Numbered from the stretch's first letter, positions 4,530 through 35,614 are shown. The stretch is 41,669 nt of DNA from Phycisphaerales bacterium (GCA_039679525.1 JBDKUU010000806.1:1-41669); one strand, 5' to 3'. A program made the numbers and translations. Notes: generated by a model not told the origin, from the sequence alone.

Positions 4530-4729
4530 CGCAACCAGCCCTCAATACTCAACACGATGAACACGACGTCACGAACTGCCAACGACCACAGGCCCGCATG
4601 GGCATACAGGCCACAGCAGAGGCTATTCGACACCAGCCACACGGGGAAACACCAGATCAGCCTGCGGTTGTTCAAAAGCACACCCACGATGGCCAACACT
4701 CCTGCGATACCACCGATCCATTCAGTCAT
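4496..4729 (-). CDS. Small membrane protein resembling the N-terminal half of PnuC-type transporters
   Basis: MTEWIGGIAGVLAIVGVLLNNRRLIWCFPVWLVSN...SIEGWLRW has two or three TM segments with a PnuC-like pattern (recalled from memory). Confidence 0.4.
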   Translation of the reverse strand: MTEWIGGIAGVLAIVGVLLNNRRLIWCFPVWLVSNSLCCGLYAHAGLWSLAVRDVVFIVLSIEGWLRWRRPCSKSQR

Positions 4730-6012
4730 CCCGTAGCACTCCTATGCGCCCGCTTCCTGTCGCGGATCTCATTCTGCATCGTCCGCTCCAGGTACGCCTG
4801 GGGCGAATCGCACCGCTGCTGCCCCGACCTGATCCGACCGGCGATCCGCAGGACCTTCGCACGCACCCGCGACATCCCGATCTCCGTCAGCTCGCAGCGG
4901 CATTGCTCCCAGAGCTTCGCCCAGTGGGCGACCTCGTTGACGTACTCACCCCGGTCACAGGTCGCGTACCCGGCCGCCGCACAGACCTGCTCCCCGAACG
5001 CATTCGCCTCGGCACTGTACCTGTGCCCCTGGGCCGCCAGGATGTCGGCCAACCGCACCCGGCTCGGCTCAGGCCGGATATCCGAGACGGGGAGGGCTTT
5101 CGGACCAGGATCACCGCCAGGCCTGTCCTGGGGGCTGCCTGGACCCTCCCCGCCGTCGGGACTCGTCGAGGGGGTCGGGGATCTCGGGATCGGGGTTTGC
5201 CCGATGGCGGTTACGTGACCGCATTGCGTGCATTGCATCGCCTTGCCCCCCCAGCCCTTGGCCGCCTTTCGGGGATTGCCGACGTGGCCGCATTGCGGGC
5301 ACGTCAGGCTTTGCGGGCCTTGGCCCGTTTGTCCGACGGCGCAAGCCGGCGGACCTTGGGCCGCACGAAGTGCGTCGAGGTCTTCGGACCTTCGATCTTC
5401 GATCTTTGCTTGCGCAGCAAGCCTTCTCGATTGCTTCGACTTAAAGGGCGGACCCTCGTTTTGACCCCGTAAAGGCCGTTTTCCACCCCCTTTTCCTACC
5501 CCCGGACCCCATCGTGACATTGGGGATTGTGGAGGCGATTTCTGAGAATGTTTTCCGACTACTATTTCCGGAATATCGTCGCACGAGTCCGGCGAAGGCT
5601 CTTCGACTCGCTCCAGGATGCCGACCGCTTCAAGGCGGTTGAGCAGGACGCTTGCACGCTTGGCCTTCACGCGCAGCAATCCGGCCACATCCGATGCCGT
5701 CATCGGCACTTTCGACCCGGTCACGAGAAGCCCTTGATATTCCAACCCCTGGTTCGTCGCGACCGTGAGAAGCTCCACGACCGCACCGACGAGCCACACA
5801 TAATCCGGATACGCGCGGAGGCGGTTCATCGAGACGAGCCACTCGGCCCCCGCCCCCTTCCACGCATTCACATACCACTTGAGATACTGATGCATCTCCA
5901 CGTTCGGCGGCATTCTCTCCGCCCCGAACCGCTCCGCGTAGCCGACGAACCGCCAGACTTTGACCCCTCTGGTCCCTGTGTCTGAATCGGATTGCCGCCT
6001 GGCCTTAGTCAT
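4726..6012 (-). CDS. Replisome-organiser-like (winged-helix, DnaD-like) replication protein with a central zinc ribbon
   Basis: Start chosen at MTKARRQ (ATG 6012) to couple with the upstream ORF. The N-terminal region YLKWYVNAWKG...MTASDVAGLLRVKAKRASVLLNRLEAVGILERV looks like Phage_rep_org_N. It also has CPQCGH...CTQCGH. Confidence 0.4.
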   Translation of the reverse strand: MTKARRQSDSDTGTRGVKVWRFVGYAERFGAERMPPNVEMHQYLKWYVNAWKGAGAEWLVSMNRLRAYPDYVWLVGAVVELLTVATNQGLEYQGLLVTGSKVPMTASDVAGLLRVKAKRASVLLNRLEAVGILERVEEPSPDSCDDIPEIVVGKHSQKSPPQSPMSRWGPGVGKGGGKRPLRGQNEGPPFKSKQSRRLAAQAKIEDRRSEDLDALRAAQGPPACAVGQTGQGPQSLTCPQCGHVGNPRKAAKGWGGKAMQCTQCGHVTAIGQTPIPRSPTPSTSPDGGEGPGSPQDRPGGDPGPKALPVSDIRPEPSRVRLADILAAQGHRYSAEANAFGEQVCAAAGYATCDRGEYVNEVAHWAKLWEQCRCELTEIGMSRVRAKVLRIAGRIRSGQQRCDSPQAYLERTMQNEIRDRKRAHRSATG

Positions 6013-6199
6013 GTTTCCGCCGCTTCCGCGCTGCATAACACGACCCATGGGCGAACCCGTCAGATAAATCGCCCATGACGCTTTCCCATTCTTCGGCTGG
6101 CACGAATTGTGGGGAACAGTCACCGGGAGGCGTACAGAAGCACGGGACCACGCATTCATCCGGCGCAACTCTTTTATGACAGAGAACGCAAGTTTCCAT
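6005..6199 (-). CDS. Small Cys-rich protein
   Basis: A 64-aa ORF with CVLCHK...CVVPCFC. Its stop overlaps the ATG at 6012 by 8 nt. Confidence 0.4.
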   Translation of the reverse strand: METCVLCHKRVAPDECVVPCFCTPPGDCSPQFVPAEEWESVMGDLSDGFAHGSCYAARKRRKHD

Positions 6200-6313: not shown

Positions 6314-7030
6314 TCATAGAACCGTCCCCCGTGACCCGTCGCTCGTGGCCCGTTCGTTGCTGCTGTCGAACAAACCCAACTGGCCCGCCCTGGCCTCTGT
6401 GCGGGCCTCCCTGCCCTGGAACTGCCGGACAATGTGCCACGAATCATTGCGCACAAACGAGGCCGAGTCTACACTGTCTGCTTCCATTGCAGCAGCGCGA
6501 TCCAAAGCCCGTAGTGTGCCGCACCGCCCGATATGGCACTTCATGCCGTGGTCGTGGGCCACCTTTACCCACATAGCAGCCGTCTCCCACTTCCACTCCA
6601 CCGTACCACCGACAAACAGATGGGTGAATGTTCCGTCGAGGACGGCACTACGGACCGCGTTCTCCATCATGCCGTCCTGTACCGCCAAAGCCAGCCGTGG
6701 AGCCGTGGACAGCGACTCAGACGCATATCGCAAGGAAAATCGCAACGAATCACAACCACGCGCCACAATATCCGGGCAGACAATGAAGTCCAGACTCAGA
6801 TCAAGCACATAGCATTTGCGAAGGGTCCCAAGGAAAAACTCCTCCATGAACGGGAAACCCCGCCGCCAACACTGGAATGCCCCATTATCCAAGGCGCAAG
6901 GAATGCCTCGATACATCTTGCTCGGGGTTCGGTTGGGACTCGATGCGATCATTATGCCAATACCCAAGTCGCGTACAATCTGAACCTTGTCTCCGCCTGG
7001 GTTGCTGGTATAGATCCTCATTCTACCCAC
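6314..7030 (-). CDS. TGT-fold / DpdA-like DNA (7-deazaguanine) transglycosylase candidate
   Basis: ALDNGAF near the N-terminus, LFVGGT, and HIGRCGT...ADSVDSASFVRN near the C-terminus resemble DpdA/archaeosine-TGT strand motifs (from memory). Size is 238 aa. Confidence 0.45.
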   Translation of the reverse strand: MGRMRIYTSNPGGDKVQIVRDLGIGIMIASSPNRTPSKMYRGIPCALDNGAFQCWRRGFPFMEEFFLGTLRKCYVLDLSLDFIVCPDIVARGCDSLRFSLRYASESLSTAPRLALAVQDGMMENAVRSAVLDGTFTHLFVGGTVEWKWETAAMWVKVAHDHGMKCHIGRCGTLRALDRAAAMEADSVDSASFVRNDSWHIVRQFQGREARTEARAGQLGLFDSSNERATSDGSRGTVL

Positions 7031-7118
7031 CCCCGCATGACCTCCAGGCAGTCTCCTTCGATGATCGTATTGACAGGCAATCCGTTGCTCACTTCACAGT
7101 CCTATTGGCGTTAGGCCG

Positions 7119-7166
7119 ATCTGCGTTCATCCGCGTCCATCTGCGGTTCCATCCTCTGTGCCTACA
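7119..7166. repeat. Intergenic mini-repeat of the GTTCATC(C/T)GC family plus a CTCTGTG remnant
   Basis: ATCTGCGTTCATCCGCGTCCATCTGCGGTTCCATCCTCTGTGCC. Confidence 0.7.
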
Positions 7167-7995
7167 TCTTCCGATTGCTGCCGGGACACCGCTTGTCCCG
7201 CTCGCCGCTCTTGCCCGTGAAGATCATGCCGTCCGTGTCGTGCGGCATGAGGCCCTTGGCACTCACCGGGATCGCGTGCCCGCAGTCCGGGCATGCAACG
7301 CGGGGGCGGCTGCCCTGCCGCGGCGACTTCGCCTGTGGCATGGATGCAGCCGGTGGGTGACGGAAGACATGCTGATTGCACACATTCGCCATGCCGACCA
7401 CCATATCCCTCTTCGGGCTGCTCAAGCAGCGGCACAGGTTCGATGCCGCCCTGTGCATGCACGTCTCACAGGTCCGCCTTTGCGCGGGCTGAGGACCCGC
7501 AGGAGCTGGGGGGCACGGCGGTAGTTTGCTGCGAAGTGCCTCCTGCTCCTGTGCCAGATCCCCGATCATCGGCTCCGGGGATGGAGTCGCGCCGGCCGCC
7601 TGGTCGAACGGACTGGCGAGGTCCACGATGATCGAGCCGTCGATCCACCGCTCGGCCTCGTAGCTCACCGGCTCCTTCGGGATCAGGCCAAGATCCTTGA
7701 ACCCGCCCACCGTCCCCACCCGGGCACTTACGCCCTGGCCCTTGCCCGGCATCATCATCTTGAGCGAGCCGTTCACGGCACCGGCGGACGGCATCAGCCG
7801 CAGGATGCGGACCTGATCGTGATGCTCGATCCGCAGGTACGGCTTGTCCTTCGGGATCTCCCGCGTCAGTTCCGCACTGATCGTCAGATTGCCCACCGGC
7901 GTGATCGTGACGAACCGGCCCTTGATCGACCGCCCGCCCTTGCCGCGGTTCGGGTACAGCGTCCAGCCATCCTCGGGAATCGTGATCTGCCTCAT
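7162..7995 (-). CDS. Hypothetical protein with a C-terminal Cys-rich region
   Basis: A 277-aa ORF with CETCMH...CRC...CNQH...CPDCGH. No family recognised. Confidence 0.5.
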   Translation of the reverse strand: MRQITIPEDGWTLYPNRGKGGRSIKGRFVTITPVGNLTISAELTREIPKDKPYLRIEHHDQVRILRLMPSAGAVNGSLKMMMPGKGQGVSARVGTVGGFKDLGLIPKEPVSYEAERWIDGSIIVDLASPFDQAAGATPSPEPMIGDLAQEQEALRSKLPPCPPAPAGPQPAQRRTCETCMHRAASNLCRCLSSPKRDMVVGMANVCNQHVFRHPPAASMPQAKSPRQGSRPRVACPDCGHAIPVSAKGLMPHDTDGMIFTGKSGERDKRCPGSNRKM

Positions 7996-8014
7996 ACGGT
8001 CAGTCCTTTCGGCT

Positions 8015-9163
8015 TCACGCCTTCCAACTGAGATATACCTGTTTCATCCCACATGCCTTTGCCGCGATCCGTGCCAATTCGTCCCGACTGACCCGGCAAA
8101 TCACCCCTTTATGATGAATAGCTACATTGTCCCCAACCTGGTCCATGCAGGTGATCGCCAGCGAGAACTTCACCTTCAGATTTCCCCGCTTCTTCCGATC
8201 CCCTCGAACCGCCTCCCCAATCAGATCGATGTCCAAACAGCCGAACCGAAGAGACCCCTGCCATTCGTTCTCTACGTTCGTTGCGTCCTTGTAACTCAGG
8301 CTCGCATCTTCCGTTGGCAGGGGCCCGTGCCCGTGCCGTGTCGTGTACGCTCTCGTGACGTAGACCACGTCGAGTTCCGATATCCCCGCAGATTCGCAGA
8401 TCGTGACGATGTTCGGCAAGCCCGTCCTGCTCCGTGTGACGTGCGGGAAAAAACGAAACGTCTCGTCGAGACAGAGCCCCTGAGAACCTTCGAAGATAAC
8501 CGTGTTCCACCGCTCGAGTTCCGATGCCAGCATTGGCCTGGCCGCCGTGTGGAACGCGGCAGCGCTGTCCATGAACTCGTCGAATAATAGCGAAGATGCA
8601 CATGCCTGCCGCAGGTTGTCCGAAGGAACCAAACCCAAAGACGCCAATCGATTCGGAAGGTAGACGTCGCGGATCGCCCGCACTTTTTCGGCAAAGTCTT
8701 TACACTCCATGTTCCACGCGAACAGTGGAAATTTTCCCTCGCACAATCTGACTACAGTCTCATTCACCCCGTAGCCGCAGGACCCGTGCCGTTGTGATCC
8801 GCGAGCGCGCTCCACTTCCCGATTGATGAGCATATCGTAAGGCGTCGTGATCGGGCTTGCGGGGTCCACGTAGAATTTCGGTTCGACGTATTGCCCAAGG
8901 TCCTTGTTCTCTCCGATCCACAGGAGTGGGTTGCAGATGAAGAACCGGGATAGATAAGTCGCAGAACCGTCCAGCGTCCCGCTGCCGAAGTGATGAAAGA
9001 CGTGCCCCACGCCGTCCTCTCGCACGACGGTGTGGCCGGCCTGGGGGCCGCCGTTGTAGCGAACCACAACGGACGGCCCTTTGGCCTGTGACGCAAAGAC
9101 GTGCGTCATTCTGCCTTTGCCCTCGTCACCGAACGCACTACCGATGATCGCCATAGCTTTCAT
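8015..9163 (-). CDS. Adenylosuccinate-synthetase family protein (PurA/PurZ-like)
   Basis: MKAMAIIGSAFGDEGKGRM (GDEGKG P-loop), YNGGPQAGHTV (AGHT His), FEGSQG and TRHGHGPLPTE. The ATG at 9163 forms an ATGA overlap with the vWA gene stop. The Asp/IMP loops diverge from E. coli PurA. Confidence 0.75.
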   Translation of the reverse strand: MKAMAIIGSAFGDEGKGRMTHVFASQAKGPSVVVRYNGGPQAGHTVVREDGVGHVFHHFGSGTLDGSATYLSRFFICNPLLWIGENKDLGQYVEPKFYVDPASPITTPYDMLINREVERARGSQRHGSCGYGVNETVVRLCEGKFPLFAWNMECKDFAEKVRAIRDVYLPNRLASLGLVPSDNLRQACASSLLFDEFMDSAAAFHTAARPMLASELERWNTVIFEGSQGLCLDETFRFFPHVTRSRTGLPNIVTICESAGISELDVVYVTRAYTTRHGHGPLPTEDASLSYKDATNVENEWQGSLRFGCLDIDLIGEAVRGDRKKRGNLKVKFSLAITCMDQVGDNVAIHHKGVICRVSRDELARIAAKACGMKQVYLSWKA

Positions 9164-10071
9164 ACATCGACCACCGTGATTCCTCCGCACGCCGTTCGCT
9201 TGGACAGCCCGGAAATCGCCTGTCTCACCACGACGCCGGTGCTGCCGTCCCATGAGGCCGCCACATTCTCGGCATTTTGCCCCTCATTCACCTGCATGAT
9301 CGAAACGATGACCTCTCCGAGACGGTTATGATCGGACACTTCAATGGCCCGCTCCCCCAGCAACTCCCTCCATTTCGCGATGGCATTCTGCTGTCTCGTC
9401 GCCGAAGTCGGCGTGATGAGGTGGAACACGTTCCAGTCACACGAGACTTCATCCAGGAGATCCTCGATGGCAACATCCGCTTCAACTGTCCCAGCCATGA
9501 ACCTTTGGATTTCTTCGCGAGTCAGGACCGGCAAAGGGGATTCATCTCCCACCGTGAAGAGATACCCCATCCGATTTCTCTTGATGATCGCGTCACACTT
9601 CGTCTTGTGGGCGGCGAACCACCACAGGATCGGGTACGATTCCCCCCCATTTCCGCCGCCGTTCCCTTCGATGAAGAACTTCTCGATCTGTTGGGCGAGA
9701 CGGATGTCTGCCTCGAATTGCGTGGTCTGAATCGGCGCATCGTCGCATGTGGCATCTCCGATCGCGGCCAACAACACATGCGGGTCCGTCACCGGTTTTC
9801 GGTCGTAGATGCCTTGGATGATGATTCCCAGCGACTTCTTGATGATCGTCGTAGCGAGCATCCCCATCGAACCCGTCTCATCCACCCCAATAATAACCGG
9901 GGTGGATTGCGGATTGGCTGGCGAATCACACGATTCCCGCACGCCGAACTTCGCCGGGTTCAGGTCATCGTGACAACCCGAACGATTGGTGAAGATGTCC
10001 TCTTGCGACTTGCCTGCGATGGACTTCGAATAATCCGTGTACACACTGTCATTCCATGTTGCATTTCCCAT
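9160..10071 (-). CDS. von Willebrand factor A (vWA) domain protein
   Basis: MIDAS-like VIIGVDETGSMG followed by a Rossmann-like alternation pattern. Size is 303 aa. Confidence 0.6.
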   Translation of the reverse strand: MGNATWNDSVYTDYSKSIAGKSQEDIFTNRSGCHDDLNPAKFGVRESCDSPANPQSTPVIIGVDETGSMGMLATTIIKKSLGIIIQGIYDRKPVTDPHVLLAAIGDATCDDAPIQTTQFEADIRLAQQIEKFFIEGNGGGNGGESYPILWWFAAHKTKCDAIIKRNRMGYLFTVGDESPLPVLTREEIQRFMAGTVEADVAIEDLLDEVSCDWNVFHLITPTSATRQQNAIAKWRELLGERAIEVSDHNRLGEVIVSIMQVNEGQNAENVAASWDGSTGVVVRQAISGLSKRTACGGITVVDV

Positions 10072-10110
10072 GTTTGTCCCTTTCGTAAATCGTTTCCGTT
10101 CACCTGTTCG

Positions 10111-11136
10111 TCACAATGTCAGCCCTTTCGGCTTCTCCTGCACGCGGCAGGACTCGGGGAAGTCCAAGACGTCGTGCGTCACTCGTCGCCAGTCGCTCGT
10201 TGGTCCCTGCTTCATCCAGACCGCGACCCCTGCATTCTGGCACTGCTCCACCATTTCCGCGGCCGCCGCCCACCAGCCCCCAGGGTCTTCCGCCGCCCAT
10301 CGGCCCGGCCTGCCGCCCGGCAGCTTCTCGCAGCCGATCACAACCCAGTCGAGGCGTGGATCTGGGCCGAACGGGTTGTGTACGGCGGAATAGTCGTGGA
10401 CACAGCCATCCTCACTCGCGCCGCAGTTGGGACATTCCCAGTGGCCGTCCACGTCGTCAGGCCCATCATACTCTTTGGCCAGCCCACCCTCCGGCGTATC
10501 GTTGTCACGAAATCCGAGCCAGCCGCAATCGCTGCACTGGACGTCGGCCAGGTATTTCAATAATCCGTTGCCGATTGGCTCGATCAACGGCTCGAAGCTC
10601 ACGCCTCGCATCACCGCCGGAATCCGAACGAGTGTCTCGATCCGGTCCAGATGCTTCGGCGACTCGACCGAGACCATCAGGATCACATGGCGAAACGCAT
10701 CAGGCCACAGCCAGTATGGTGGGGGCCTGTGCTGGTACCACTTTATGAACTCCGCCATCCGCTCGACGCACTTCGTCAGGACCATGAACCGCTGCTCGGG
10801 ACACGTGGCCATCGTGTCGAAGACGCGGGCTATGTACTCCAACGGCACCCGCTCGTCGAACAGATCGGATTTGCTGTTCACGAAGATGAGCTGCGGACCT
10901 CGCCAATGGCGCGGCAGGTCAAGGTTGGACTCCAGCAACTCCACTTCGCCGGACCATCGCAACGCGCCATGCGAGTCTCGCGAGATAACCTTGGCCGCCG
11001 GGCCACCAGGGAACCGCCCCGCAATCCGGGCCAGGCTCGGCAAGGCCCAACAGTGCTCGCAACCCTCGGACCGCTTCTCGCAGCCCAAGGTCACGTCCCA
11101 GGTCTCGTCACAGTATGGAATCTCAGTATCAGCCAT
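10111..11136 (-). CDS. Phage Gp37/Gp68 (DUF5131) family protein with an inserted zinc ribbon
   Basis: N-terminus IPYCDETWDVTLGCEKRSEGCEHCWA is the family signature. Extra segment: CSDCGW...CPNCG. Confidence 0.7.
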   Translation of the reverse strand: MADTEIPYCDETWDVTLGCEKRSEGCEHCWALPSLARIAGRFPGGPAAKVISRDSHGALRWSGEVELLESNLDLPRHWRGPQLIFVNSKSDLFDERVPLEYIARVFDTMATCPEQRFMVLTKCVERMAEFIKWYQHRPPPYWLWPDAFRHVILMVSVESPKHLDRIETLVRIPAVMRGVSFEPLIEPIGNGLLKYLADVQCSDCGWLGFRDNDTPEGGLAKEYDGPDDVDGHWECPNCGASEDGCVHDYSAVHNPFGPDPRLDWVVIGCEKLPGGRPGRWAAEDPGGWWAAAAEMVEQCQNAGVAVWMKQGPTSDWRRVTHDVLDFPESCRVQEKPKGLTL

Positions 11137-11146
11137 TCAAACCCCT

Positions 11147-11178
11147 TTCACCATAGAGACACAGAGATCACAGAGATC
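11147..11178. repeat. Mini-repeat of the CACAGAG family (TTCACC...CAGAGA orientation on +)
   Basis: TTCACCATAGAGACACAGAGATCACAGAGATC, 10 nt upstream of the start at 11136. Confidence 0.75.
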
Positions 11179-11370
11179 GTAGATGTTTGAGAATCACGTC
11201 ATGGACCGCCGCCTTGCACCAACCACACCCCGGCCTCTCAGGGCCAAACGGACTATCCCTGTGCATCAGCATGAGACGGCTCGCCTTTTTTCCGTTGCCG
11301 CCATCCGTGAATAGTTCCTCTGTAATCTCGTCCGCAAGCCTGTCGTATTTTCGTTCCATCCTGTTCTGCA
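11168..11370 (-). CDS. Small hypothetical protein
   Basis: ATG at 11370 (MQNRMERKYDRLADEITEEL...CGWCKAAVHDV) directly abuts the repeat at 11371..11400. Confidence 0.4.
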
Positions 11371-11991: not shown

Positions 11992-12501
11992 CTATGGATT
12001 CAGCCAGATCGTCACGCCGAACAGGGCGCGGACCTCCGGCTGCTCGTCCGCCGAGCCCTCCGGACGCACCCACTCGGCCCAGATCGTCGGCTGAACGAAC
12101 CGGTCGGGGAACAGCATGGCGCCCGTCGCCAGCAGGAAACTCATATCGGCGCTGTCGTTGATCTCCCACGTCACGCCGATCCGGCCGTAGGTCGTCAAGG
12201 GCACGTCCGGCAGGTCGATCGCGGGCAGAACTGTACCCAGGATCTTGCGGTAGGCCTCGTCCAATCGGAAGGTCGCCACGGGCCCGAGTGCAAAGTTCTC
12301 GCCCGTGTCCTCACTAACCGCCGAGTCCGTCACGAACAGCAATCCCACACCCCCGTTCGGATCGGGCCACCAACTTGCGGCGATCTGCACGTCCTCGTAG
12401 TCGAAAGCCCCGTCCACCGTCCATGTGCCCAGGTCCATCGAACCCCAGCACGGCACCACAACCAACAAACCGATAATCCACTGAAACGTCCTTGCTCTCA
12501 T
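11992..12501 (-). CDS. Secreted or envelope protein with a signal peptide, function unknown
   Basis: MRARTFQWIIGLLVVVPCWGS is signal-like. SD AAAGGA lies upstream. The protein has a beta-rich composition. Confidence 0.5.
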   Translation of the reverse strand: MRARTFQWIIGLLVVVPCWGSMDLGTWTVDGAFDYEDVQIAASWWPDPNGGVGLLFVTDSAVSEDTGENFALGPVATFRLDEAYRKILGTVLPAIDLPDVPLTTYGRIGVTWEINDSADMSFLLATGAMLFPDRFVQPTIWAEWVRPEGSADEQPEVRALFGVTIWLNP

Positions 12502-12520
12502 GTTCGAATCCTTTCTAAAG

Positions 12521-12630
12521 AAGTTTGAAGTTTCAAGTTTGAAGTTTGAAGGTTATCCTCTCGCAAAGACGCGGAGACACAGAGGTCACGAAGAAGATGG
12601 TGTCTCGTGACTCGTGATCCGTGACTCGTA
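12521..12630. repeat. Composite spacer made of three different mini-repeat families
   Basis: (AAGTTTGA)x4 at 12521-12552, CCTCTCGCAAAGACGCGGAGACACAGAGGTCAC at 12557-12589, and GTGACTCGTGATCCGTGACTCGTA at 12606-12630. Confidence 0.75.
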
Positions 12631-13011
12631 TACGACCACCCGGGCAAGCTGCATACCTGCGAACCATAGTTTGTAGGACTCGCAGGGAGGATCGTGTTCG
12701 CCGCATCCGCCGCACTCATGCGACTCACAGAATTCCTCTGGGTCGAGTGCCAATACCCCCTGCGAGTGGTCCCATCCCGCAGCCACCTTTTGCGACCAGT
12801 CAACCACTTTGTCACACCACATCACCTGCAGTACGTGCGGTTCGATGTCATCGTCATCGAGACGCCTACCCACGTTGCTGTTCAGGAATCGCTCGAAGGC
12901 CACATCAACGCCGATATCGTCACCGCTGCCGAGACAATCCGGGCAGGTCCCAATGTCTACAATGCCCTCACCACTGCAAGTCACGCATTCTCCAAGTTCC
13001 TCTTCTCTCAT
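12586..13011 (-). CDS. Zinc-finger protein with a DnaJ-type CxxCxGxG pair
   Basis: ATG at 13011: MREEELGECVTCSGEGIVDIGTCPDCLGSGDD... The C-terminal codons are repeat-derived. Confidence 0.5.
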   Translation of the reverse strand: MREEELGECVTCSGEGIVDIGTCPDCLGSGDDIGVDVAFERFLNSNVGRRLDDDDIEPHVLQVMWCDKVVDWSQKVAAGWDHSQGVLALDPEEFCESHECGGCGEHDPPCESYKLWFAGMQLARVVVYESRITSHETPSSS

Positions 13012-13292
13012 TTTTCTGTGTCCTCTGTGTCGTCTGTGCCTCTGTGGTGCATCTCTTCCGCGAACGCCACACACACATCGCAGCCGACCGGGCAGTCGTC
13101 ATCTACCTTGAGCGGGCAGGGCTCGACGCCGCCGGGCTCCGGGATCAGAACCCTCGGCCGCTCGATCCCGTCGCCGCATAGGTCGAGGTCGCGGCCGCTG
13201 AGGTCGGGATTCGTCGCTCGGCTCTCGTCGCTCGCCATATCGAGCCGGACCGTCAGCAGGTCATCCATCGTCAGGTCACTCATCGGGTCCAT
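13008..13292 (-). CDS. Small acidic hypothetical protein
   Basis: A 94-aa ORF whose last ~14 residues (HHRGTDDTEDTEK) are encoded by the CACAGAG repeat. Its stop overlaps the next ATG (ATGA). Confidence 0.45.
   Translation of the reverse strand: MDPMSDLTMDDLLTVRLDMASDESRATNPDLSGRDLDLCGDGIERPRVLIPEPGGVEPCPLKVDDDCPVGCDVCVAFAEEMHHRGTDDTEDTEK
13013..13050. repeat. Mini-repeat of the CTCTGTG family
   Basis: TTCTGTGTCCTCTGTGTCGTCTGTGCCTCTGTGGTGCA. Confidence 0.75.
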
Positions 13293-13364
13293 CGTTCGTC
13301 ACTCGTCCCTCGTCGCTCGTCGCTCGTTTCGTATCTGCGTTCATTCGCGTTCATCTGCGGTTCC
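13291..13364. repeat. Composite spacer: CGTCGCTCGT family plus GTTCATCTGC family
   Basis: TCGTTCGTCACTCGTCCCTCGTCGCTCGTCGCTCGTTTCG followed by TATCTGCGTTCATTCGCGTTCATCTGCGGTTCCC. Confidence 0.75.
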
Positions 13365-13366
13365 CT

Positions 13367-13687
13367 TCAGGTTCCGAACATGGTACAACACGATCCGATC
13401 CGCGAATTGCCCCCAGCATAGAGCATCGTGAGGTTCGGCACATGGGCGAGGCCCGCGTCCGTGATCCCCGAATTGCCCCATGCATCGAGCGTCGTGAGGT
13501 TCGGCACATGGGCGAGGCCCGCGTCCGTGATCCCCGAATTGCCCCCATCATAGAGCTTCGTGAGGTTCGGCACATGGGCGAGGCCCGCGTCCGTGATCCC
13601 CGAATTGCCCCCAGCATAGAGCGTCGTGAGGTTCGGCAACTCGGCGACCTCGACTCCAATCTGTCTGGCAAATTGTTCGGCTGTCAT
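13367..13687 (-). CDS. Mini leucine-rich-repeat (RNI-like LRR) protein
   Basis: Four near-identical 22-aa units of NSGITDAGLAHVPNLTxLYxGG. Size is 106 aa. Confidence 0.65.
   Translation of the reverse strand: MTAEQFARQIGVEVAELPNLTTLYAGGNSGITDAGLAHVPNLTKLYDGGNSGITDAGLAHVPNLTTLDAWGNSGITDAGLAHVPNLTMLYAGGNSRIGSCCTMFGT
13395..13640. repeat. 66-bp tandem repeat (about 3.7 copies) encoding the LRR units
   Basis: CACATGGGCGAGG recurs at 13439, 13505 and 13571. Confidence 0.85.
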
Positions 13688-13715
13688 AGTTACCCCTTAA
13701 AATGCAAGCAGCCAC

Positions 13716-13808
13716 TATCCCCGAATCCGTCCGATCCAGTTTCGTAGTCTTCTGAAAATCTGCCGCAGTAGACGTCTCATCATTTCCATCCTTCGCGTTC
13801 ATCTGCGG
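13716..13808. repeat. Direct duplication, copy 1: 5' region plus the first 24 codons of gene 13827..14114
   Basis: About 93 nt, nearly identical to 14041..14143. It encodes the truncated MEMMRRLLRQIFRRLRNWIGRIRG*. Confidence 0.85.
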
Positions 13809-13826
13809 TTCCCTTCCCCTTGTCAC

Positions 13827-14114
13827 TCACTTCCCGTCCAGAACGGCCTTAAGAACTTCGGGCCAGATCCCTTCATTCTGCCAGACCCGCTGAACCAGCT
13901 GCCAGTAGTATGGCAGCCGTTGCTCAGGAGACAGGTGTCCCCAGCATGTTTCACAGAGGGGGAAACAACCAATAGTACCGAAGTGAGTAGTATGGGGCTC
14001 GGCATGATCCCATGTATCCCCACAGCGCAAACAATAGCTATATCCCCGAATCCGTCCGATCCAGTTTCGTGGTCTTCTGAAAATCTGCCGCAGTAGACGT
14101 CTCATCATTTCCAT
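13827..14114 (-). CDS. Hypothetical Cys/Trp-rich protein
   Basis: 95-aa ORF: MEMMRRLLRQIFRRPRNWIGRIRGYSYCLRCGDTWDH...CETCWGH. Confidence 0.5.
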   Translation of the reverse strand: MEMMRRLLRQIFRRPRNWIGRIRGYSYCLRCGDTWDHAEPHTTHFGTIGCFPLCETCWGHLSPEQRLPYYWQLVQRVWQNEGIWPEVLKAVLDGK

Positions 14115-16938: not shown

Positions 16939-17976
16939 TCACCATGAAACGGCGTTGAATGCCCGGCGGCCCTCGTCCAGGCATTTCCGCTGGTCTACCG
17001 CTGTGTAGACCTCTTTGGTCAGCCGATCAGTGGCGTGTCCGAGCAGCTCCTGGCAGAAGTGGCTCGGCACGCCCTGCTCGGCCAACTGCGTGGCCGCGTT
17101 CTTCCGCAACGTGTGGAACGTCCCCTCGGCGATCCGCTCAGCGCCCGCCGCAATCCGCAGGGCGTTCGCCGCCGCGAGGATCCGCCGCAGCTCCCTGTGA
17201 AAATTGTTGTACGGGTACTTTCTCTGTGTTTCGGACAGGCGCCCCACCTGCGACTGCTTGGCCCGACAGGTCCGCTCCTTCAGGAATGGATACCGCCACG
17301 GGGCCACCTGCCGCAGTCGCGACAGGACCGCCCAGAGATCGTCGCTCATCGGGACCTTGCGGTCTGACTTGCCCTTGGCCGTCCACCGCCAGAACTCCCC
17401 GAGCCGGTCCGGACGCGACTGGATCATAACGACCCCGGACTCGAGGTCGATATCGTCCCATCGCAGGTTCCAGACCTCGCCGATCCGAGGGCCTGTCAAG
17501 GCCATCAGGAAAAAGCCCGTCCACCGCAAGATCCCGGCCGCGTCCGGCCACGTCAGGGCCGCTACGCCATCGTCCGGATTGCCCCGCACGACGTCGAGCA
17601 TCGAGCCCAACTCCTCGTGCGTGTAGACGTGCACCTTCCGTCGCGTCGCCTTGACCCGGTGGCAGCGGGCCACCGGATTCGCCGCACAGATCCCGGCGTC
17701 GACGGACCAGGCGAAGACCTGGCCGACCGCCGCCGTATAGCTGAAGACGCTGTGCTCGCTGAAGCCCCGGCCGTAGCGGCTGGTCGCCTCATCCCGCATG
17801 TGACGCTGGTACGAGTCGATCTGCTCGGCCGTCACGGCGGCCGCCGGCGCCGAATCGCCCAGCAGCCGCCTCAGCAGCCGCCAGGCGGACCGGCACTTGG
17901 CGCGGGTCGTGCCCTGGGTCACGGAAGAACTCTCGAACTTGTCAAATAACTCAACGATCGTGCATCGCTCAGGCAT
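16939..17976 (-). CDS. int: Tyrosine integrase / site-specific recombinase
   Basis: LTGPRIGEV (Arg), HTLRKNAAT (HxxR), LLGHAT and KEVYTAV (catalytic Tyr). Size is 345 aa. Confidence 0.9.
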   Translation of the reverse strand: MPERCTIVELFDKFESSSVTQGTTRAKCRSAWRLLRRLLGDSAPAAAVTAEQIDSYQRHMRDEATSRYGRGFSEHSVFSYTAAVGQVFAWSVDAGICAANPVARCHRVKATRRKVHVYTHEELGSMLDVVRGNPDDGVAALTWPDAAGILRWTGFFLMALTGPRIGEVWNLRWDDIDLESGVVMIQSRPDRLGEFWRWTAKGKSDRKVPMSDDLWAVLSRLRQVAPWRYPFLKERTCRAKQSQVGRLSETQRKYPYNNFHRELRRILAAANALRIAAGAERIAEGTFHTLRKNAATQLAEQGVPSHFCQELLGHATDRLTKEVYTAVDQRKCLDEGRRAFNAVSW

Positions 17977-22113: not shown

Positions 22114-23733
22114 CTATGCACTCGCCGACGCTGAGGGGCTGGCGCTGACTGATTGGCTCGGCGTGCCTTCCGACGCGGACGCCGACGGACTGACGCTCGC
22201 CGATTGGCTCTGGCTCGTGGATGGGCTCGTGCTGAAGGACCCGCTCACCGGCTCGCCCGGCTCGACGGCGGGGCCCGGACCCGTCCCCTCCGTGATATAG
22301 CCGGCGACGAAGACGTCCTCGATGCACTCGATCACGCATTCCCCGCTCGTCAGGGATCCGCGGCTGATCTTCGTGACGCGGACCGCGAGGGCTGAGACCT
22401 TCAGGTCCGAGCAGGTGATCGTGATCGGGTCGCCAACTTTCAGGTGCGCCATGGTCCGCAGTGCCCGCAACACGAACGTGCGGGGCATCGCACTGACCGC
22501 CTGCTGCTCGCGGGCCGCGATCTCGACGGCCAGGTCCGGCAGGCAGATGAAATTCGAGTAGTCGATCTCCTGGACGACGGGCAGCCCCCCCTGCTTGGCG
22601 ATCATGGCCAGGTCCGGTCCGTAGGCGGGCCGCCGCTCCAGCGTCACCCGGTCCCAGTACCAGACCTTCGTGCGGGTTGGCAGCCGGCCGAGCGACGAGC
22701 AGGCCATGGACTCGACCCAGAAGTCACTCTCGTCGAACGATCCGACTGAAACATCCGATTCGCGGATCAGGGCAATCTCGAATTTGCCCGTCTCGGAATC
22801 GACGTAGAGCTTGCCCCGGATGATCTCCTCGATCTGCTCGACCATCTTCTCGATATCGTCGGCGTCCCAATCCCACACGCACGAAAGGCCGATCCCCTCC
22901 GTGTAGCACGTATCCGCGGCCGTCGTGAAGCTGTCCCCGATCAGGGCGGCGGACTTGCCCAGCCCGATCACGGAGCTGGTGAGCAGCTCGTACAGGATAT
23001 GGATCGCGTTCAGGTCCCCATCCGAGCCCACAGGGGCCTTCGCGATGTACCACATCGCCGTGCCGTCCGAAAGCTGGTTCACCCGCTTGCAGAGGAAGGA
23101 CCAGGGCTTCAGATACGCCTGGGTCCCGATGTACGTGAGCTTCAGGACGATGGATGTGAAGCCGCGGGAGGGCGGCTCCGTGGCGCCGAGCAGTGCGGAA
23201 AGATAGGAGTCGAGCGTCTGGGCCGATCCGCCGTAGAGGATGTGCAGGGCACCCCCGTAGTGGTAGATGCCTCCCTCTCGCTTGCCGCCCCCCCAGCACC
23301 ATTGGCATTCCGCCTGAAACTCGACGCTCGCCGCCGCGTCCCCCGCCATCTCCGTCGCATCGTTCAGCACGGGCCAGACGCAGGTGTCCGCCACCCAGAT
23401 CTGCTTGACCCCGTCGATATTGGCCTGGCAGATCCCCATCTGCAGTGAGATATAGTACAGCCAGGCCGCGTAGTCGCTGTGCGTCCAGTAGTAGCTGTTC
23501 AATTCCAGCAGCGGCGTGACCGCGTTGGGACTCTGGACCCGGCGAGTCCCGAAGACGACCGGATAGGGCCGGCCCTCCTCGGCCGTGGGCAGCTCGAAGG
23601 CATCCTTGCCCGCCGGTTTCGGCTTCGATGCCTTCTGGCGGAAGGCGTAGCTCACCGCGTAGGAGATGGCCACGGCGATGGCGATTTTGATCGCTGCAGA
23701 GATGATGAACGGGATGAATGCCCACGCCAACAT
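22114..23733 (-). CDS. Tail tip / host-specificity (gpJ/GTA g15-like N-terminal) protein with a Ser-rich C-terminal tag
   Basis: The ATG at 23733 shares one nt with the upstream stop (TGATG). [27 protein letters not shown]...EGRPYPVVFGTRRV... The protein is last in the tail module. The C-terminus is ...[25 protein letters not shown]. Confidence 0.6.
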   Translation of the reverse strand: MLAWAFIPFIISAAIKIAIAVAISYAVSYAFRQKASKPKPAGKDAFELPTAEEGRPYPVVFGTRRVQSPNAVTPLLELNSYYWTHSDYAAWLYYISLQMGICQANIDGVKQIWVADTCVWPVLNDATEMAGDAAASVEFQAECQWCWGGGKREGGIYHYGGALHILYGGSAQTLDSYLSALLGATEPPSRGFTSIVLKLTYIGTQAYLKPWSFLCKRVNQLSDGTAMWYIAKAPVGSDGDLNAIHILYELLTSSVIGLGKSAALIGDSFTTAADTCYTEGIGLSCVWDWDADDIEKMVEQIEEIIRGKLYVDSETGKFEIALIRESDVSVGSFDESDFWVESMACSSLGRLPTRTKVWYWDRVTLERRPAYGPDLAMIAKQGGLPVVQEIDYSNFICLPDLAVEIAAREQQAVSAMPRTFVLRALRTMAHLKVGDPITITCSDLKVSALAVRVTKISRGSLTSGECVIECIEDVFVAGYITEGTGPGPAVEPGEPVSGSFSTSPSTSQSQSASVSPSASASEGTPSQSVSASPSASASA

Positions 23734-26498
23734 CAGAGCACCCCCCACTGACTCCAGACGTCTTCGTCCGGGATATTTTTCTGGCCGCGGAAATTGGCCG
23801 AGTTCGCGAACTTCGAGGCACAGGTGGCCGCCAGGTGATCGCAGCCGGGCCAGATCGTGAAGGGCCGGCCTGTCACGTCCTCCGGCAGCGTCGGCCAGAT
23901 CGTCACCGTATCGCCGGACTGGGCGACGACCGTGCGGCGGTGACCTTTGACGAGGATGTCCCCGCCGAGCCACCAATCGGCGCCCTTGAGTCCGAAGGTC
24001 GCACTCGTCAGGACCCGGCCGGAAACCGATTCGATCGCCCCCTCGAAGGCATACTCGTCCCGGTCCACGCCGCACAGATCGCTGTAGAGGTCCACGCCGC
24101 ACAGACGGCTGTAGCAGTTCACCAGGCCGCTTCGGGCGGTCGCAGCGGAGGAAGGATCGATCGTGATCTCGGCGCAGCGGCCGTCCCCCTTGCGGGAGGT
24201 CTGCTTGAATGCGACTTGGATCACATCGCCCCGATAGATCGCACGGACCTGGTCCCCGTGCCCCCGATAGCGAACGTAGTGGACGATGGCCTCCGGCGGG
24301 TCCTGGAGCCAGCGGAGGGCCAGGGCGTTATTCCAGTTCACCTTGACGACGGTCTGATCCTTCAGGACCGTCGCCCCCTCCTGGATCTCCCCACCGAGGC
24401 AATAGCAGGCGGTGAACGTGTTGCCGCCGTAATCCACGTCGGCCGGTGCGTCCGCGTAGCGGTAATAGACCGCCGTCTCACCGATCTGGAACTCGTGCAG
24501 CTCGTACGGTTCCCCCGTATCGAGCGAGGCCTCGTACTCGTCATAGTCGGAGGACTCCGAAGGGGAGGCCGAAGGGGTTGCGGAGACCGAGGCGGAGAGG
24601 CTCGCGCTCGGCGAGCCGCTGAGGCTGGAGGATGGGGTCCCTTCACTGGCGGAAGCGGATGGTGATACACTGACCGATTGCGATGGACTTGCAGATGCGG
24701 TGCCCTCGCTCGACGAAGCGGAGGGTGAACCGCTCATACTGGCACTGGGCGAGGCCGAAAGACTACCGCTCGGTGAGCCGGATGCGGACGCAGAGGGACT
24801 GGCACTAATCGATTGTGATGGACTATGCGACAGGCTGGCACTCGGCGAGATGGAGACCGAGGCTGATGGAGTCGCGGATGCTGAGCCGCTCGGACTGGCG
24901 CTGACCGACTGGCTCGGCGTCCCCTCCGACGCCGACGCCGATGGGCTGGCGCTCGCCGACTGGCTCGGGCTCGTGGCTGGGGCTGACGCCGAGGGGCTGG
25001 CACTGGCCGATTGTGATGGGCTGTGCGAGAGGCTGGCACTCGGCGATACGGAGATCGAGGCTGATGGAGTCGCTGATGGCGAACCGCTCAGACTGGCGCT
25101 CATCGACTGGCTCGGCGTGCCCTCCGACGCGGACGCCGATGGGCTGGAGCTTTTCGAACCCGAGGGGCTTTGGCTGACCGACTGGCTCGGCGTGCCCTCC
25201 GAGGCGGATGCCGATGGGCTCGCACTTTTCGAACCCGAGGGGCTCTGACTGACCGACTGGCTCGGAGTCCCCTCCGACGCGGATGCTGATGGGCTCGCGC
25301 TTTTCGAACCCGATGGACTCTGGCTGACCGACTGGCTCGGCGTCCCTTCCGACGCCGAGGCCGATGGGCTGGCGCTGACCGAACCCGATGGACTCTGGCT
25401 GGCCGATTGGCTCGGCGTCCCTTCCGACGCCGAGGCCGATGGGGAGGCACTTTTCGAACCGCTCGGGCTGGCACTGATCGACTGGCTGGGACTGCTCGCC
25501 ACGCCGGAGGCGGAAGGCGATGCGGATTTCGAAGCGGACTTGCTCGCCGAAGGACTCGGACTCGGGGAAGAGGATATGTACTCGTCGTATCCCACGTCCC
25601 ACCCGGCGCCTGCAGGCCGGGCGTTGCCGTCCACATCTTCATCCGGGTCCATATCCGCCGATGCGTTGGTTCCGGCATCCTTCAAGGTTGACGAGTCCCC
25701 GATGTGCAGGTCCTCGCTGCCGGCCGTGACGTTCGTGAAGTAGGCCCCGCTGCTGGTCGAGAAGGCGGCCGTGGAAGTGGAAAGCGACCCATCCTCGCTG
25801 TAGCAGTTCGTCAGGGTCACCGCGCCGGCGTCCGCGTGCTTGGCGTAGTCCGCCGTCCCAGTGCCGCCGGCATAGCAGTTCTTGGCCGTCAGGGTCGAAT
25901 AGGCCCCAACGTAGATGCCGTAGACCGACTGATTCGCGAAACTGCAATTCAGGACGACCGTGCCGGTTTTTGAATTGGCGACGTTGACACCACGGGTTCC
26001 ACCAAAACAACCACAGTTCTGAATGAGCCAGTTGTTCCCGCCGACACTGATGCAGTAGGCGCCCGGCTGGCGGATCAGGCATCGCGTGACTCGAATCGAA
26101 GCATTGCTACTGACGATTCCGTTGCCGTCCGTCACATGGGCATAGACCTGCAAGCCCTCCAGGCGGGTGTAGGCCGGCATGGCGTTCAGGGTCGTCGCGT
26201 AGGCCGTGGTCCGGCCGATCCGGTACTTGCTCGTAGACCAGACGCCCGCGTGATTGTCCGCCGACACGATCCGCAGATAGTTCGAGGCCGAGGCATTGGT
26301 CCAGCCGCTGAAATCCACTGCGGTCGTGTCCGCCGTCGCTCCGCGGCAATAAACCGTGTGCTGCTTGCCGCCGTCCGCCGAGAGATCGCCGTCTTCCGCC
26401 GCACTCCAGGCCGATAGCGTCTTGTAGGCGGTCGCCCAGGAGGTCCCGTCTCCGCCCACCGCGATATCCGTATCGACATATCTGACGACTTCCGCCAT
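23733..26498 (-). CDS. Chimeric tail hub/fibre: beta-helix domain, ~340-aa Ser/Ala/Pro linker, then a DUF2163/BR0599 (GTA g13-like) domain
   Basis: The N-terminus has periodic xNC rungs ([10 protein letters not shown]...VLNCSFAN...AKNCYAGG...LTNCYSEDG). The middle carries [25 protein letters not shown] repeats. The C-terminus has [27 protein letters not shown]. Confidence 0.7.
24552..25574. repeat. Coding tandem repeats with triplet-periodic (AGC/GCC/CCG) units of about 66-75 bp
   Basis: Multiple near-identical copies encode [17 protein letters not shown]. Confidence 0.85.
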
Positions 26499-26499
26499 C

Positions 26500-28344
26500 T
26501 CAGAACACCCTCACGAGATCCACCTCGCAGGTCATTCGGCCCCGCCCCTGCCAATCGAATTGCACCTCCCCGCTCGCCAGTCGGCAGCGATCGACCCAGG
26601 ACAGGTATCCGCCGGCGGCCAGGCTCACGCCCAAGGCCGCATCAATGGTCACGAACTCCTCACTCGCCGAGACCGTCGCGATATCAGTCACCTTCCGCAC
26701 GATCAGCGATTCGCCGGACCTGTAGGCCACATAGGTCCGGATCGCGTCGCCGTCCAGATTGAGGGCGAAGCGTGCGGATTTGACGTACAACTCCACGGCG
26801 TCCGAAGTGGCGGCTCGGGTCAGCGAGAGGTCCCTGCGGAAGGTCGGGACGAGGAACGCCTTCTGCGGTCCACAGACGTAGTGCATGAACTGCCTCAGAG
26901 ACCAGCATTGGGCGGGAGTGCGGCAGACCCAGGAGTGGCCCTGGCCGGTCTCGTTATTGTCGCCCACCCGGACCACCTCGAAGGGCCCGGCCCCGGAATC
27001 CAATACCGCAACGTCCGGATCGTGATCGATCTTGCCCGTCCGGCCGGACCAGACAGCGGGGTCCGTGAGCACGGGCAGACTGTCGTATTCCAACGCGGCC
27101 GCGTAGCCTGTCACGCGGACCGGATCGACGATCCCGATCCGGACTTCCAGCAGGGCGCCGCCCCCCAGCCGCTCCTCGGCCGAGGCGGCCGTGATCCGAC
27201 CCTGGCGCAGCGGCATGATCCAGTCGGAGGCGGTCCAGGCCTTCGCCGTTACGATACTCAGACCCAGCGAATCATCCGCTACGGTCGCGATCCGCACGAT
27301 CTCGTGATCCGCCAGGTTCCAGAGCACGGCGTAGCCATCATCGCGGTAATCGGCGTATCGGGTATCGACCGGGATCGACGATGAGCCGGCCGGCAACACC
27401 GCCCCGAGCTGAGCAGACTCCGGCCAGATGGGCACCGGCCAGGTCCTCCGCAGCCAGCGGTTCACCGCCGACTCCATCGCCGCCACCTCGTCCTCGCCGA
27501 CGGCGAGGAGCTTCGTCTGATACGATTGGTTGGGGACCTTGCGCCGCAGTGCGATTCGCTGCTCCGTTCGATCCCCGCTCTGCAGGACGTTCGCCGGGAA
27601 GTGCAGGACCTCCGTCACCGGCCACGTCCACCGCTGCCAGGCGGGGGCCAAGGTCAGGCAGGTCATCACGGGGGTGAACTCGGCGAAGGCCGTGAAATGC
27701 CCGGACCATTCGAGCAACGGGTCATCGCCGGCGTCATACGTGATCGTACCCTGCTCCGTCAGGTCGTCGCCGACCAGGGCATCGGGGCCATCGACCAGCT
27801 TCCAGTAGCCGAGCAGGTGCGCCAATTGGACGTCCTGAATCGGCGTCGTCTTTGCGGCCAGGGACTCGATCTCGGCGTCGCTCAGCACCACGTCCCATAT
27901 CGCGACATGGGCGATCTTGCCGTCGAAGGGCTGCGGCGAGGAAGGGTTGAACAGGCTGCGGCCCACAACGATAAAGGTCATGGACTCCGTACCGGAGCCG
28001 GCCGTATAGGAATGTGTGATTTCGACCCCGTTGAGCCACAGCGCGCGGTCCACATTGTCGGCGGCAGTCAGGATGAAGTGGTTCCATTCATCGAGCGAGT
28101 ACTCCTCGGGATAGGAAGTGAACCCGGTTGCGGAGCCGAGATGATCGTAGATGTCGGCGAGATCACTAGCCACCAAGGAGAGTTTGAGAGCATAATCTGG
28201 ATCGTCGCGGCCGACTTCTACTACACCGCAATAATTGCCGCCCACAGTTTTCGGTTTCGCCCAAGCCATGATCGTGACAGGCCGGCCGGAGGTCAAGGCC
28301 AATTGTAGGTAGTTGTTCTTGTTGTCGTTGAACACTACAGACAT
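26500..28344 (-). CDS. LamG (Laminin_G_3)-domain fusion to a distal tail protein (GTA g12-like position)
   Basis: The ATG at 28344 gives [38 protein letters not shown] is the LamG_3 hallmark. Assignment of the rest is by position after the tape measure. Confidence 0.55.
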
Positions 28345-28348
28345 CGAA

Positions 28349-28753
28349 TCACTCCCACGGCAGGCTGAAGCGCAGGGCACCGGCCGCGAAGGTCGGCGGC
28401 GTACTGCCGTTGATTACTTCGACCACGGCCGGCAATGGGGCGGAGACCAGGATGTTCCCGCCGCTCGACGCATCAGCCAAAAAGACGTGGCTGATATTGC
28501 CCCAGTCGCCCGTGGGCGTGGCGAAGGCGACGGCCACGGCGTTCTCGATCGATCCATCGGCGGCCGCCGTCCAGTCGGCGGCGTCCATTTCGATCCTGGC
28601 ATACGAGCCACCGGAGGGCTCGGAGAGGCCGCTGCCGTCCGCAGTCGGGTCCGCCAGGGACAGGCCCACGTAGATGTGGGCCGGGACGGAATAGGCCCCC
28701 TTGCCGAACGTGTGATTCAGCCATGCGTTCGCGAGATAAGTACTCAAACCCAT
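28349..28753 (-). CDS. Small conserved virion/tail-associated protein
   Basis: YLANAWLNHTFG...HIYVGLSLADPTADGSGLSEPSGGSYARIEM...WGNISHVFLADASSGGNIL. The pattern is recalled from phage tail-region proteins. Confidence 0.45.
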   Translation of the reverse strand: MGLSTYLANAWLNHTFGKGAYSVPAHIYVGLSLADPTADGSGLSEPSGGSYARIEMDAADWTAAADGSIENAVAVAFATPTGDWGNISHVFLADASSGGNILVSAPLPAVVEVINGSTPPTFAAGALRFSLPWE

Positions 28754-34924: not shown

Positions 34925-35614
34925 CTATCCCGCCTTTCCACCGATGAAATACGTCGTCATCACGTCCTCGACCGTTCCCCAAGGGTCCAGCCGTTTGACC
35001 AGTCGGCCGCTGTGCCGCTTGCACGGGGCGTAGTTGCCCCCGTGATTGACCAGGTCCAGGATGCCGGGGCCCGGAGCCGCGAGCATCTCGTATTCGATCT
35101 TCGCAATGCCGAGCGTCTCAGAGCCCTTGCCCGGCTCAAACGCATCGTGAAAATCCTCGTCGAAAAAGCAGCGAACGAGCTTGGCGACCGCGTCCATCAG
35201 CAGGACCGCCCGCTCGGCGATCACAAGCTGCATGGACCGGCCGCCCCGGTCCACGGAGAACCGGCGGCAATCCATCAGGGCCCGATGGCGATTCTGATCG
35301 AAGACGACCTCCCCTTTCACCGGACGCAGAAAGAAATGCTCCGGTGGGTAGAGGACATCGTGCTCGCACAACGCGACGAACTCGGTCTCGCACGCCAGGC
35401 ACCCGGCGGCGATCTGGCGGAGGATGGAGCGATAGGACCGGCCGATGTCCCCGAGGCAGACGTTGTGCCCGAAGTCGATCGGCCGCTGCGAGATACTGAC
35501 GATCGGAATCCCCCCGGCCTTCCCGGCACTCGCGATGAGATGGGCCCTCACTGCCGCAGCGAACCGGCTCGGAAGACTGTTGTCCGTATAATAGAGGATC
35601 GTCAGATCGGTCAT
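34925..35614 (-). CDS. Putative GT-A-like glycosyltransferase (weak call)
   Basis: ILYYTDNSL...VALCEHDVLYPPEHF pattern. It lies adjacent to the large GT ORF with a 4-nt overlap. Confidence 0.35.
   Translation of the reverse strand: MTDLTILYYTDNSLPSRFAAAVRAHLIASAGKAGGIPIVSISQRPIDFGHNVCLGDIGRSYRSILRQIAAGCLACETEFVALCEHDVLYPPEHFFLRPVKGEVVFDQNRHRALMDCRRFSVDRGGRSMQLVIAERAVLLMDAVAKLVRCFFDEDFHDAFEPGKGSETLGIAKIEYEMLAAPGPGILDLVNHGGNYAPCKRHSGRLVKRLDPWGTVEDVMTTYFIGGKAG

Follow-up and report, generated by a model that had tools for sequence, protein, structure and literature searches.

A block of five phage genes at 6314–11136 of a Phycisphaerales contig: a probable mosaic of independent accessory modules, with a vWA/PurA-like pair and a small DpdA candidate

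The DNA considered here is contig JBDKUU010000806.1 (positions 1–41669; assembly GCA_039679525.1, Phycisphaerales bacterium), and "the window" denotes this whole stretch of 41,669 nucleotides (nt). Between 6314 and 11136 it carries five co-directional open reading frames (ORFs) on the minus strand. In order of transcription, these encode a DUF5131 (Gp37/Gp68) protein of the radical S-adenosylmethionine (radical-SAM) superfamily, a protein with a von Willebrand factor A (vWA) fold, a divergent ligase of the PurA superfamily, a cysteine-rich protein, and a minimal protein of the tRNA-guanine transglycosylase (TGT) fold that resembles DpdA. An earlier note, made from the sequence alone, had joined all five into one translationally coupled operon for purine/DNA hypermodification. 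The five ORFs are confirmed, but coupling is found at one junction only, where the stop codon of the vWA gene and the start codon of the PurA-like gene overlap in ATGA (9160–9163); the remaining intergenic spacers measure 39, 19, and about 131–140 nt. A promoter and terminator scan yielded no signal above shuffled expectation. The combined module is not borne out, and the block is read here, with a probability of roughly 0.6, as a mosaic of accessory genes in which at least two independent modules lie side by side in the early region of a temperate siphovirus-like phage.

The vWA protein (9160–10071, minus strand, 303 amino acids (aa)) belongs to phrog_2971. Pfam and Protein Data Bank (PDB) sequence searches gave no match, and its class comes from an AlphaFold2 (AF2) model with a predicted local distance difference test score (pLDDT) of 89.3. 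The Foldseek PDB matches of this model are all vWA domains, at E values of 2e-6 to 2e-4. Residues D64-x-T66-x-S68 and D176, which resemble a metal ion-dependent adhesion site (MIDAS), are invariant in the family, and the earlier assignment as a vWA/MIDAS protein stands. At least 2385 homologues were found, one of them named YegL by the Joint Genome Institute (JGI).

The PurA-like protein (8015–9163, minus strand, 382 aa) most likely starts at 9163 rather than 9253. It is a PurA homologue, matching PF00709 at 1.1e-39, as the earlier note had it; the further likening to PurZ fails. Against the NCBIfam PurZ model NF038379, the protein scores 39.6 bits where the cut-off is 300, and its PDB sequence matches at E ≤ 0.001 include bacterial PurA chains and leave out PurZ chains. 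A 2026 survey found Ser in place of the catalytic Asp13 of PurA in all 147 of 147 phage PurZ proteins, while 99% of PurA proteins retain the Asp (PMC12884076). When Ser14 of PurZ is changed back to Asp, the selectivity for its substrate is lost (bioRxiv 10.1101/2025.10.22.683976). The P-loop of the window protein reads FGDEGKG, compared with FGSTGKG in phiVC8 PurZ, and Asp13 is kept in all 82 members of its clade. The protein shares with PurZ its phage origin, its superfamily, and a Phe where PurZ has F12. It differs in having Asp at the position of Ser14, in having Asp333 of a TKLD-type guanine-recognition motif, and in being obligately paired with a vWA protein, whereas phiVC8 PurZ has no such partner. 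Judged by these residues and scores, the PurZ reading is refuted.

The PurZ name is nevertheless attached to such proteins. PHROG 1211 and RefSeq (NC_070967, NC_023737, and others) apply "2-aminooxy adenylosuccinate synthetase" to Asp13-retaining PurA-like proteins of Rhizobium, Vibrio, and Mycobacterium phages, cluster C included, which is probably a mis-annotation of this clade. A phage PurA homologue alone is not evidence for 2-aminoadenine DNA. As the earlier note had also observed of DatZ and MazZ, no Pfam or PHROG family of DatZ, MazZ/DUF550, DpoZ, or DutZ/DmtZ type is present among the window ORFs scanned, on a contig that is incomplete.

The clade also departs from canonical PurA in ways that bear on its chemistry. 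The window protein has the GDEGKG P-loop, His41, Gln224, and Thr239 of PurA and agrees with the PurA fold over about 290 residues, while its C-terminal third is divergent and shorter. Among the 82 clade members, Lys16 and Gln224 are universal like Asp13, His41 and Thr239 occur in 81, the P-loop is likewise kept in 81 or 82, and Asp333 is retained in 94%. Active-site positions are substituted at the same time: N38Q in 95%, Thr129 to Cys or Val (Cys in the window protein), and V273H and G298Q in every member. All 82 lack four residues at Escherichia coli positions 302–305, within the L-aspartate loop 298–305 (GATTGRRR). In E. coli PurA, this segment includes Arg303 and Arg305, which bind L-aspartate. 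The conserved catalytic residues together with the deleted loop segment thus indicate that the phosphotransfer machinery is intact and the third-substrate site remodelled, and with the aspartate loop remodelled the product is probably not ordinary adenylosuccinate, nor is it the 2-aminodeoxyadenosine (dZ) precursor that PurZ makes.

The pairing of the two genes is nearly absolute. The vWA gene lies directly upstream of a PurA-like gene in Vibrio phage phiKT1024, Rhizobium phage RHph_Y65, Mycobacterium phage TinyTim, and one IMG/VR contig. Searches with the vWA protein led to 83 other contigs; in 82 of these the PurA-like gene follows it immediately, in the same orientation, and the sole exception ends 33 bp past the vWA gene. 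Directly upstream of the vWA gene, 49 of 88 loci (L013, L016, L032, L035, and 45 others) encode a protein of about 342 aa that carries the HPD motif of a J-domain and resembles kinases in its C-terminal half; the window has no such gene. In two bacterial contigs from metagenome-assembled genomes (MAGs), the three-gene cassette sits amid housekeeping genes (L201, 8928–9995; L202, 8944–9996). No paper on the vWA–PurA-like pair was found in the literature.

The vWA protein resembles TerY/YegL-type proteins in its fold, in its MIDAS-like motif, in the one homologue named YegL, and in TinyTim, where the J-domain/kinase-like gene is annotated as a Ser/Thr kinase, a neighbour that recalls the TerY-kinase-phosphatase triads. 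It differs from them in lacking a Pfam vWA match and in its partners, which are the PurA-like ligase and often the J-domain/kinase-like protein; no protein phosphatase 2C (PP2C) was seen.

Tight linkage to vWA and, frequently, J-domain/kinase-like proteins is not a feature of purA genes, which counts against the simplest account of the pair: that the ligase is an ordinary adenylosuccinate synthetase, carried as an auxiliary metabolic gene to raise AMP supply, with the vWA protein as its regulator or scaffold. The conserved residues Asp13, Lys16, His41, Gln224, Thr239, and Asp333 speak for it, as do the nearest solved relatives, which are bacterial PurA enzymes, and the position of the pair amid nucleotide-metabolism genes in large phages. 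However, the protein reaches 108.9 bits where the PurA equivalog NF002223 requires 402, and 99.4 against 395.6 for TIGR00184. The loop deletion and the changes at positions 38, 129, and 273 add to this, and the account is unlikely.

The coupled pair (8015–10071) travels as a unit in many unrelated phages and some bacterial chromosomes, and the ligase retains the machinery to phosphorylate a 6-oxopurine nucleotide at the 6-oxygen in a GTP-dependent way. A tentative proposal is that the vWA and PurA-like proteins are the core of an uncharacterised system. With its remodelled third-substrate loop, this PurA-fold and probably GTP-dependent ligase may make a non-canonical N6-substituted purine nucleotide or modify a purine on a macromolecule. 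The product would be neither AMP nor the dZ precursor, and could be a signal, a counter-defence metabolite, or a modification precursor. The clade is now defined by an active-site signature and by strict vWA linkage, which makes it a tractable two- or three-gene system for experiment.

The closest relatives of the window's pair, in loci L030 and L031, have notable neighbours. In L030, a MazZ-like protein of the DUF550 family (dATP/dGTP pyrophosphohydrolase) is encoded 2 kb downstream, and both loci have classical Radical_SAM genes nearby. The neighbours listed for these loci are at 12250–13827 and 16326–16933 in L030 and at 6557–7540 in L031.

At the other end of the block, the minimal TGT-fold protein (6314–7030, minus strand, phrog_15826) is 238 aa long as called; its start is probably the ATG at 7021, giving 235 aa. 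Single-sequence and profile searches of the PDB, Pfam, NCBIfam, and PADLOC gave nothing useful for this protein or for the vWA protein, and both were resolved by structure prediction only. The earlier note had staked its assignment beforehand on a TGT-type triosephosphate isomerase (TIM) barrel, and the AF2 model is a TIM barrel, with a pLDDT of 93.7 and a predicted template modelling (TM) score of 0.86. The top 50 Foldseek matches in the PDB are all tRNA-guanine or archaeosine TGT structures (E about 1e-6, probability 1.0, query TM about 0.55–0.60). Structural matches in BFVD include phage queuine tRNA-ribosyltransferases, a Vibrio phage nt-1 protein, and phage DpdA, and the protein is 26–36% identical to actinophage proteins annotated "DpdA-like tRNA-guanine transglycosylase". 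The family has at least 1251 homologues of about 210 aa each.

The residues point in the same direction. Asp48 (ALDNGAF), Asp87 (CPDIV), and Asp188 (ADSVDS) are invariant among 57 family sequences, Phe52, four residues past Asp48, is present in at least 90%, and Gly141/Gly142 are also conserved. In Salmonella DpdA, the corresponding set is Asp95/Phe99, Asp130, Asp256, and Gly206/207, of which Asp95 and Asp256 are essential (PMC10164549). The two sets agree in order, spacing, and motif, an assignment made by motif and not by superposition. The small protein thus has in common with TGT and with DpdA, both the bacterial enzyme and phage DpdA1–DpdA4, the TIM barrel, three aspartates in order, a D-x-x-x-F gate, and a GG motif.

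The strongest evidence for DpdA identity is the company that the family keeps. A QueD, QueE-like, QueC, or FolE homologue lies 0–830 bp away on the same strand at 24 of 92 DpdA-like loci, or in 18 of the 55 lineages obtained by grouping these loci at 90% identity. The terminase genes often follow the DpdA-like gene directly in related loci, an arrangement also found in Mycobacterium phage Rosebush. The 6314–7030 product is accordingly a good and credible DpdA candidate, a putative DNA guanine/7-deazaguanine transglycosylase by analogy with its characterised relatives. By the same analogy, Asp188 would displace guanine from phage DNA, with Asp48 as general acid/base and Asp87 as reader of the base edge. 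In place of the guanine, the enzyme would insert a 7-deazaguanine base, for example preQ0, supplied either by the host or by genes on the missing part of the phage genome. A minimal, zinc-less family of this kind would widen the known range of 7-deazaguanine DNA modification to include temperate phages of little-studied hosts. ReqiPine5, R6L, Majeke, and Sonali, phages that carry small relatives, do not appear in the portion of the supplementary lists of the 2019 DpdA census that was available.

Two further observations concern the family. The best viral match of the model in BFVD is A0A0F7L9Z1 of an uncultured marine virus (499 aa, TM 0.76, 29% identity), in which the minimal barrel is fused to a further domain of about 290 aa. 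Locus L005 holds a partial second copy of the N-terminus at 11121–11285 (55 aa, 53% identity), 0.5 kb downstream of the full gene.

The DUF5131 protein (10111–11136, minus strand, 341 aa) opens the block. It matches PF07505 at 7.9e-48, with 163.5 bits against a cut-off of 28.9, and also phrog_2045 and PADLOC PDC-M41B/M30B. Near its N-terminus lie C19-X6-C26-X2-C29, the CX6CX2C motif of the DUF5131 radical-SAM subgroup (Megacluster-5-2 of RadicalSAM.org, PMC9477430), so the Gp37/Gp68 assignment with this motif was correct. The protein differs from the subgroup in an insert of about 50 aa (approximately residues 195–243) within some 90 residues beyond the Pfam model. The earlier note had seen the insert and called it a zinc ribbon; it is instead rubredoxin-like, with W-x-C-P-x-C-G and PDB rubredoxins matched at E about 0.01. 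The insert could serve the radical-SAM cluster as an internal source of electrons. No paper on DUF5131 function was found.

DUF5131 genes recur near DpdA-like genes elsewhere, 80 nt upstream in L025–L027 and at 0.65–6 kb in other phages (about 0.65 kb in L113, 3.6 kb in L116, and 5.5 kb in L003/L004). These loci have no other tested window protein in common. Of 12 lineages with a DpdA-like protein sharing 45% or more identity with that of the window, 4 have a DUF5131 gene within 0.08–6 kb, compared with 3 of the 83 vWA loci (Fisher p = 0.004). Within this DpdA-like subclade, DUF5131 may act as a partner in an accessory role, a lead and not a result.

A stronger version of this idea makes the two genes a DNA-modification module, in which the radical-SAM enzyme either produces or modifies some base that is not preQ0, or else works directly on DNA. 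It would fit the absence of preQ0 genes from the lineages that have both genes, and the RadicalSAM.org megacluster is shared with spore photoproduct lyase, a DNA-acting enzyme (PMC9477430). However, the DUF5131 proteins are 27–31% identical to that of the window and the DpdA-like proteins 56–60%, so the two genes did not descend together. DUF5131 is widespread in phages generally, both genes occur together in only 5 of 55 lineages, and in the window three other genes lie between them. These points leave a two-gene module decidedly improbable.

The remaining gene, the cysteine-rich ORF (7162–7995, minus strand, 277 aa), has no Pfam, PHROG, NCBIfam, or PADLOC match and is as unfamiliar as the earlier note had found it. 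A search of 5.8 billion proteins gave one homologue, encoded in a Phycisphaerales MAG, and the gene is absent from all of the related vWA and DpdA-like loci compared. Lying between the modules, it is a lineage-specific orphan and not a conserved part of either.

The distribution of the genes decides how the block is to be read. No DpdA-like gene occurs in any of the 83 vWA contigs, and neither a vWA nor a PurA-like gene occurs at any of the 92 DpdA-like loci, counts in which the loci are not phylogenetically independent. The vWA/PurA-like pair and the DpdA-like gene are never together elsewhere, and the five genes are therefore juxtaposed modules of independent distribution. Part of the block does recur once: on a 5.9-kb contig of a second assembly (L184; GCA_039680185.1, JBDKTM010000267.1), the DUF5131, vWA, PurA-like, and cysteine-rich genes stand together, the cysteine-rich protein identical to that of the window and the other three products equal in length. 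This second contig is probably that phage again, placed in one bin with its host. A single pathway uniting PurZ-type and DpdA-type chemistry, as first proposed, can appeal to this recurrence and to the single strand, short spacers, and undetected terminators, but the modules never co-occur elsewhere, the hallmark Ser of PurZ is missing, no DatZ-, MazZ-, or DpoZ-type family was found, and the cysteine-rich gene is an orphan, all of which make it very improbable. Of the earlier note, the gene calls prove largely right and the DpdA reading is supported.

Several points weigh against a mosaic with a DpdA module in it, beyond the shared ancestry within the counts. All five genes lie close together in one orientation, and no terminator signal exceeds chance, so that co-transcription, and some functional interplay specific to this phage, may exist despite the separate modules. 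The DUF5131 enrichment near DpdA-like genes is modest. The small family differs from TGT and bacterial DpdA in having no structural zinc site, which both conserve (PMC10164549): its members stop at about residue 210, one helix past the last barrel strand, without the C-terminal zinc subdomain, and the CxCxxC...H motif is not conserved in the family. HMMER gave no PF01702 or DUF6610 match for the 6314–7030 product, and an hhalign comparison of the family profile with Rosebush DpdA was not significant and does not place the family among DpdA1–DpdA4. That the target would be DNA and not tRNA we infer solely from the characterised phage DpdAs.

The DpdA-like gene of the window is a singleton. As the earlier note had reported, preQ0 genes are absent from the window: in tblastn searches that used QueC, QueD/E-like, and FolE proteins of Rosebush and a metagenomic QueD, no match was better than E = 0.14. 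Mycobacterium phage Orion, which has DpdA only and a host without preQ0 synthesis, contains zero 7-deazaguanine, and phage 7-11, also DpdA-only, contains just 0.02% 2′-deoxy-7-amido-7-deazaguanosine (dADG) (Hutinet et al., PMC6884629). Given unmodified Orion, the DNA of this phage may therefore be unmodified as well, and its modification is uncertain. What the analysis shows directly are folds, motifs, and gene linkage; substrates, DNA as the target, and actual modification of the phage DNA are inferred. For further work, the vWA/PurA-like system, with its J-domain protein, is most worth pursuing; a secondary lead is the DpdA-like family without a zinc subdomain, together with DUF5131 as its possible partner.

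The window has a G+C content of 62%, and nearly all of its transcription is from the minus strand. It includes a tyrosine integrase (16939–17976), lambda-like tail genes with tail-assembly and tail proteins (22114–28380), and head-tail connector genes (32.4–34.6 kb), which together mark the source as a temperate siphovirus-like phage. Neither a terminase nor a portal gene was recognised in the window. The leftmost ORF is cut by the contig end, and an attempted circular closure found no terminal repeat and no sensible read-through, so the phage genome is incomplete. The host is possibly a Planctomycetota bacterium, to which the Phycisphaerales MAG homologue of the cysteine-rich orphan is a weak pointer.

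The ORF downstream of the block (4726–6168), which the earlier note had called a replication gene, has no supporting family match, only a weak match to MarR_2. The truncated leftmost ORF, which the note had given as a PP-loop enzyme at 1–501 and a possible contributor to the block, is a PP-loop protein resembling 3′-phosphoadenosine 5′-phosphosulfate (PAPS) reductase and extends over 1–600 on the minus strand (phrog_424 at 8.1e-26; weak SspD match). A gene of this kind adjoins or is near a small DpdA-like gene in ReqiPine5 (gp02/gp03; L002, 8709–9626) and in Erythrobacter phage R6L (ORF7/ORF10, PMC5463345), and that of the window, 5.7 kb from its DpdA-like gene, is a third such case. A link between the two was considered and rejected, as there is no enrichment among 93 loci.

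Upstream of the connector genes, at the expected position of the head genes, lie two large minus-strand genes. One (35611–38856) encodes a 1081-aa protein with two family 2 glycosyltransferase (GT2) domains and a Methyltransf_24 domain, and the other (39900–41444) a 514-aa protein with two class-I methyltransferase domains (Methyltransf_9/23). Their products could have a role in virion or surface glycosylation, or in another modification. A short minus-strand ORF at 13367–13687 is built of leucine-rich-repeat-like units, with GNSGITDAGLAHVPNLT four times over; units of this type are typical of Planctomycetota proteins.

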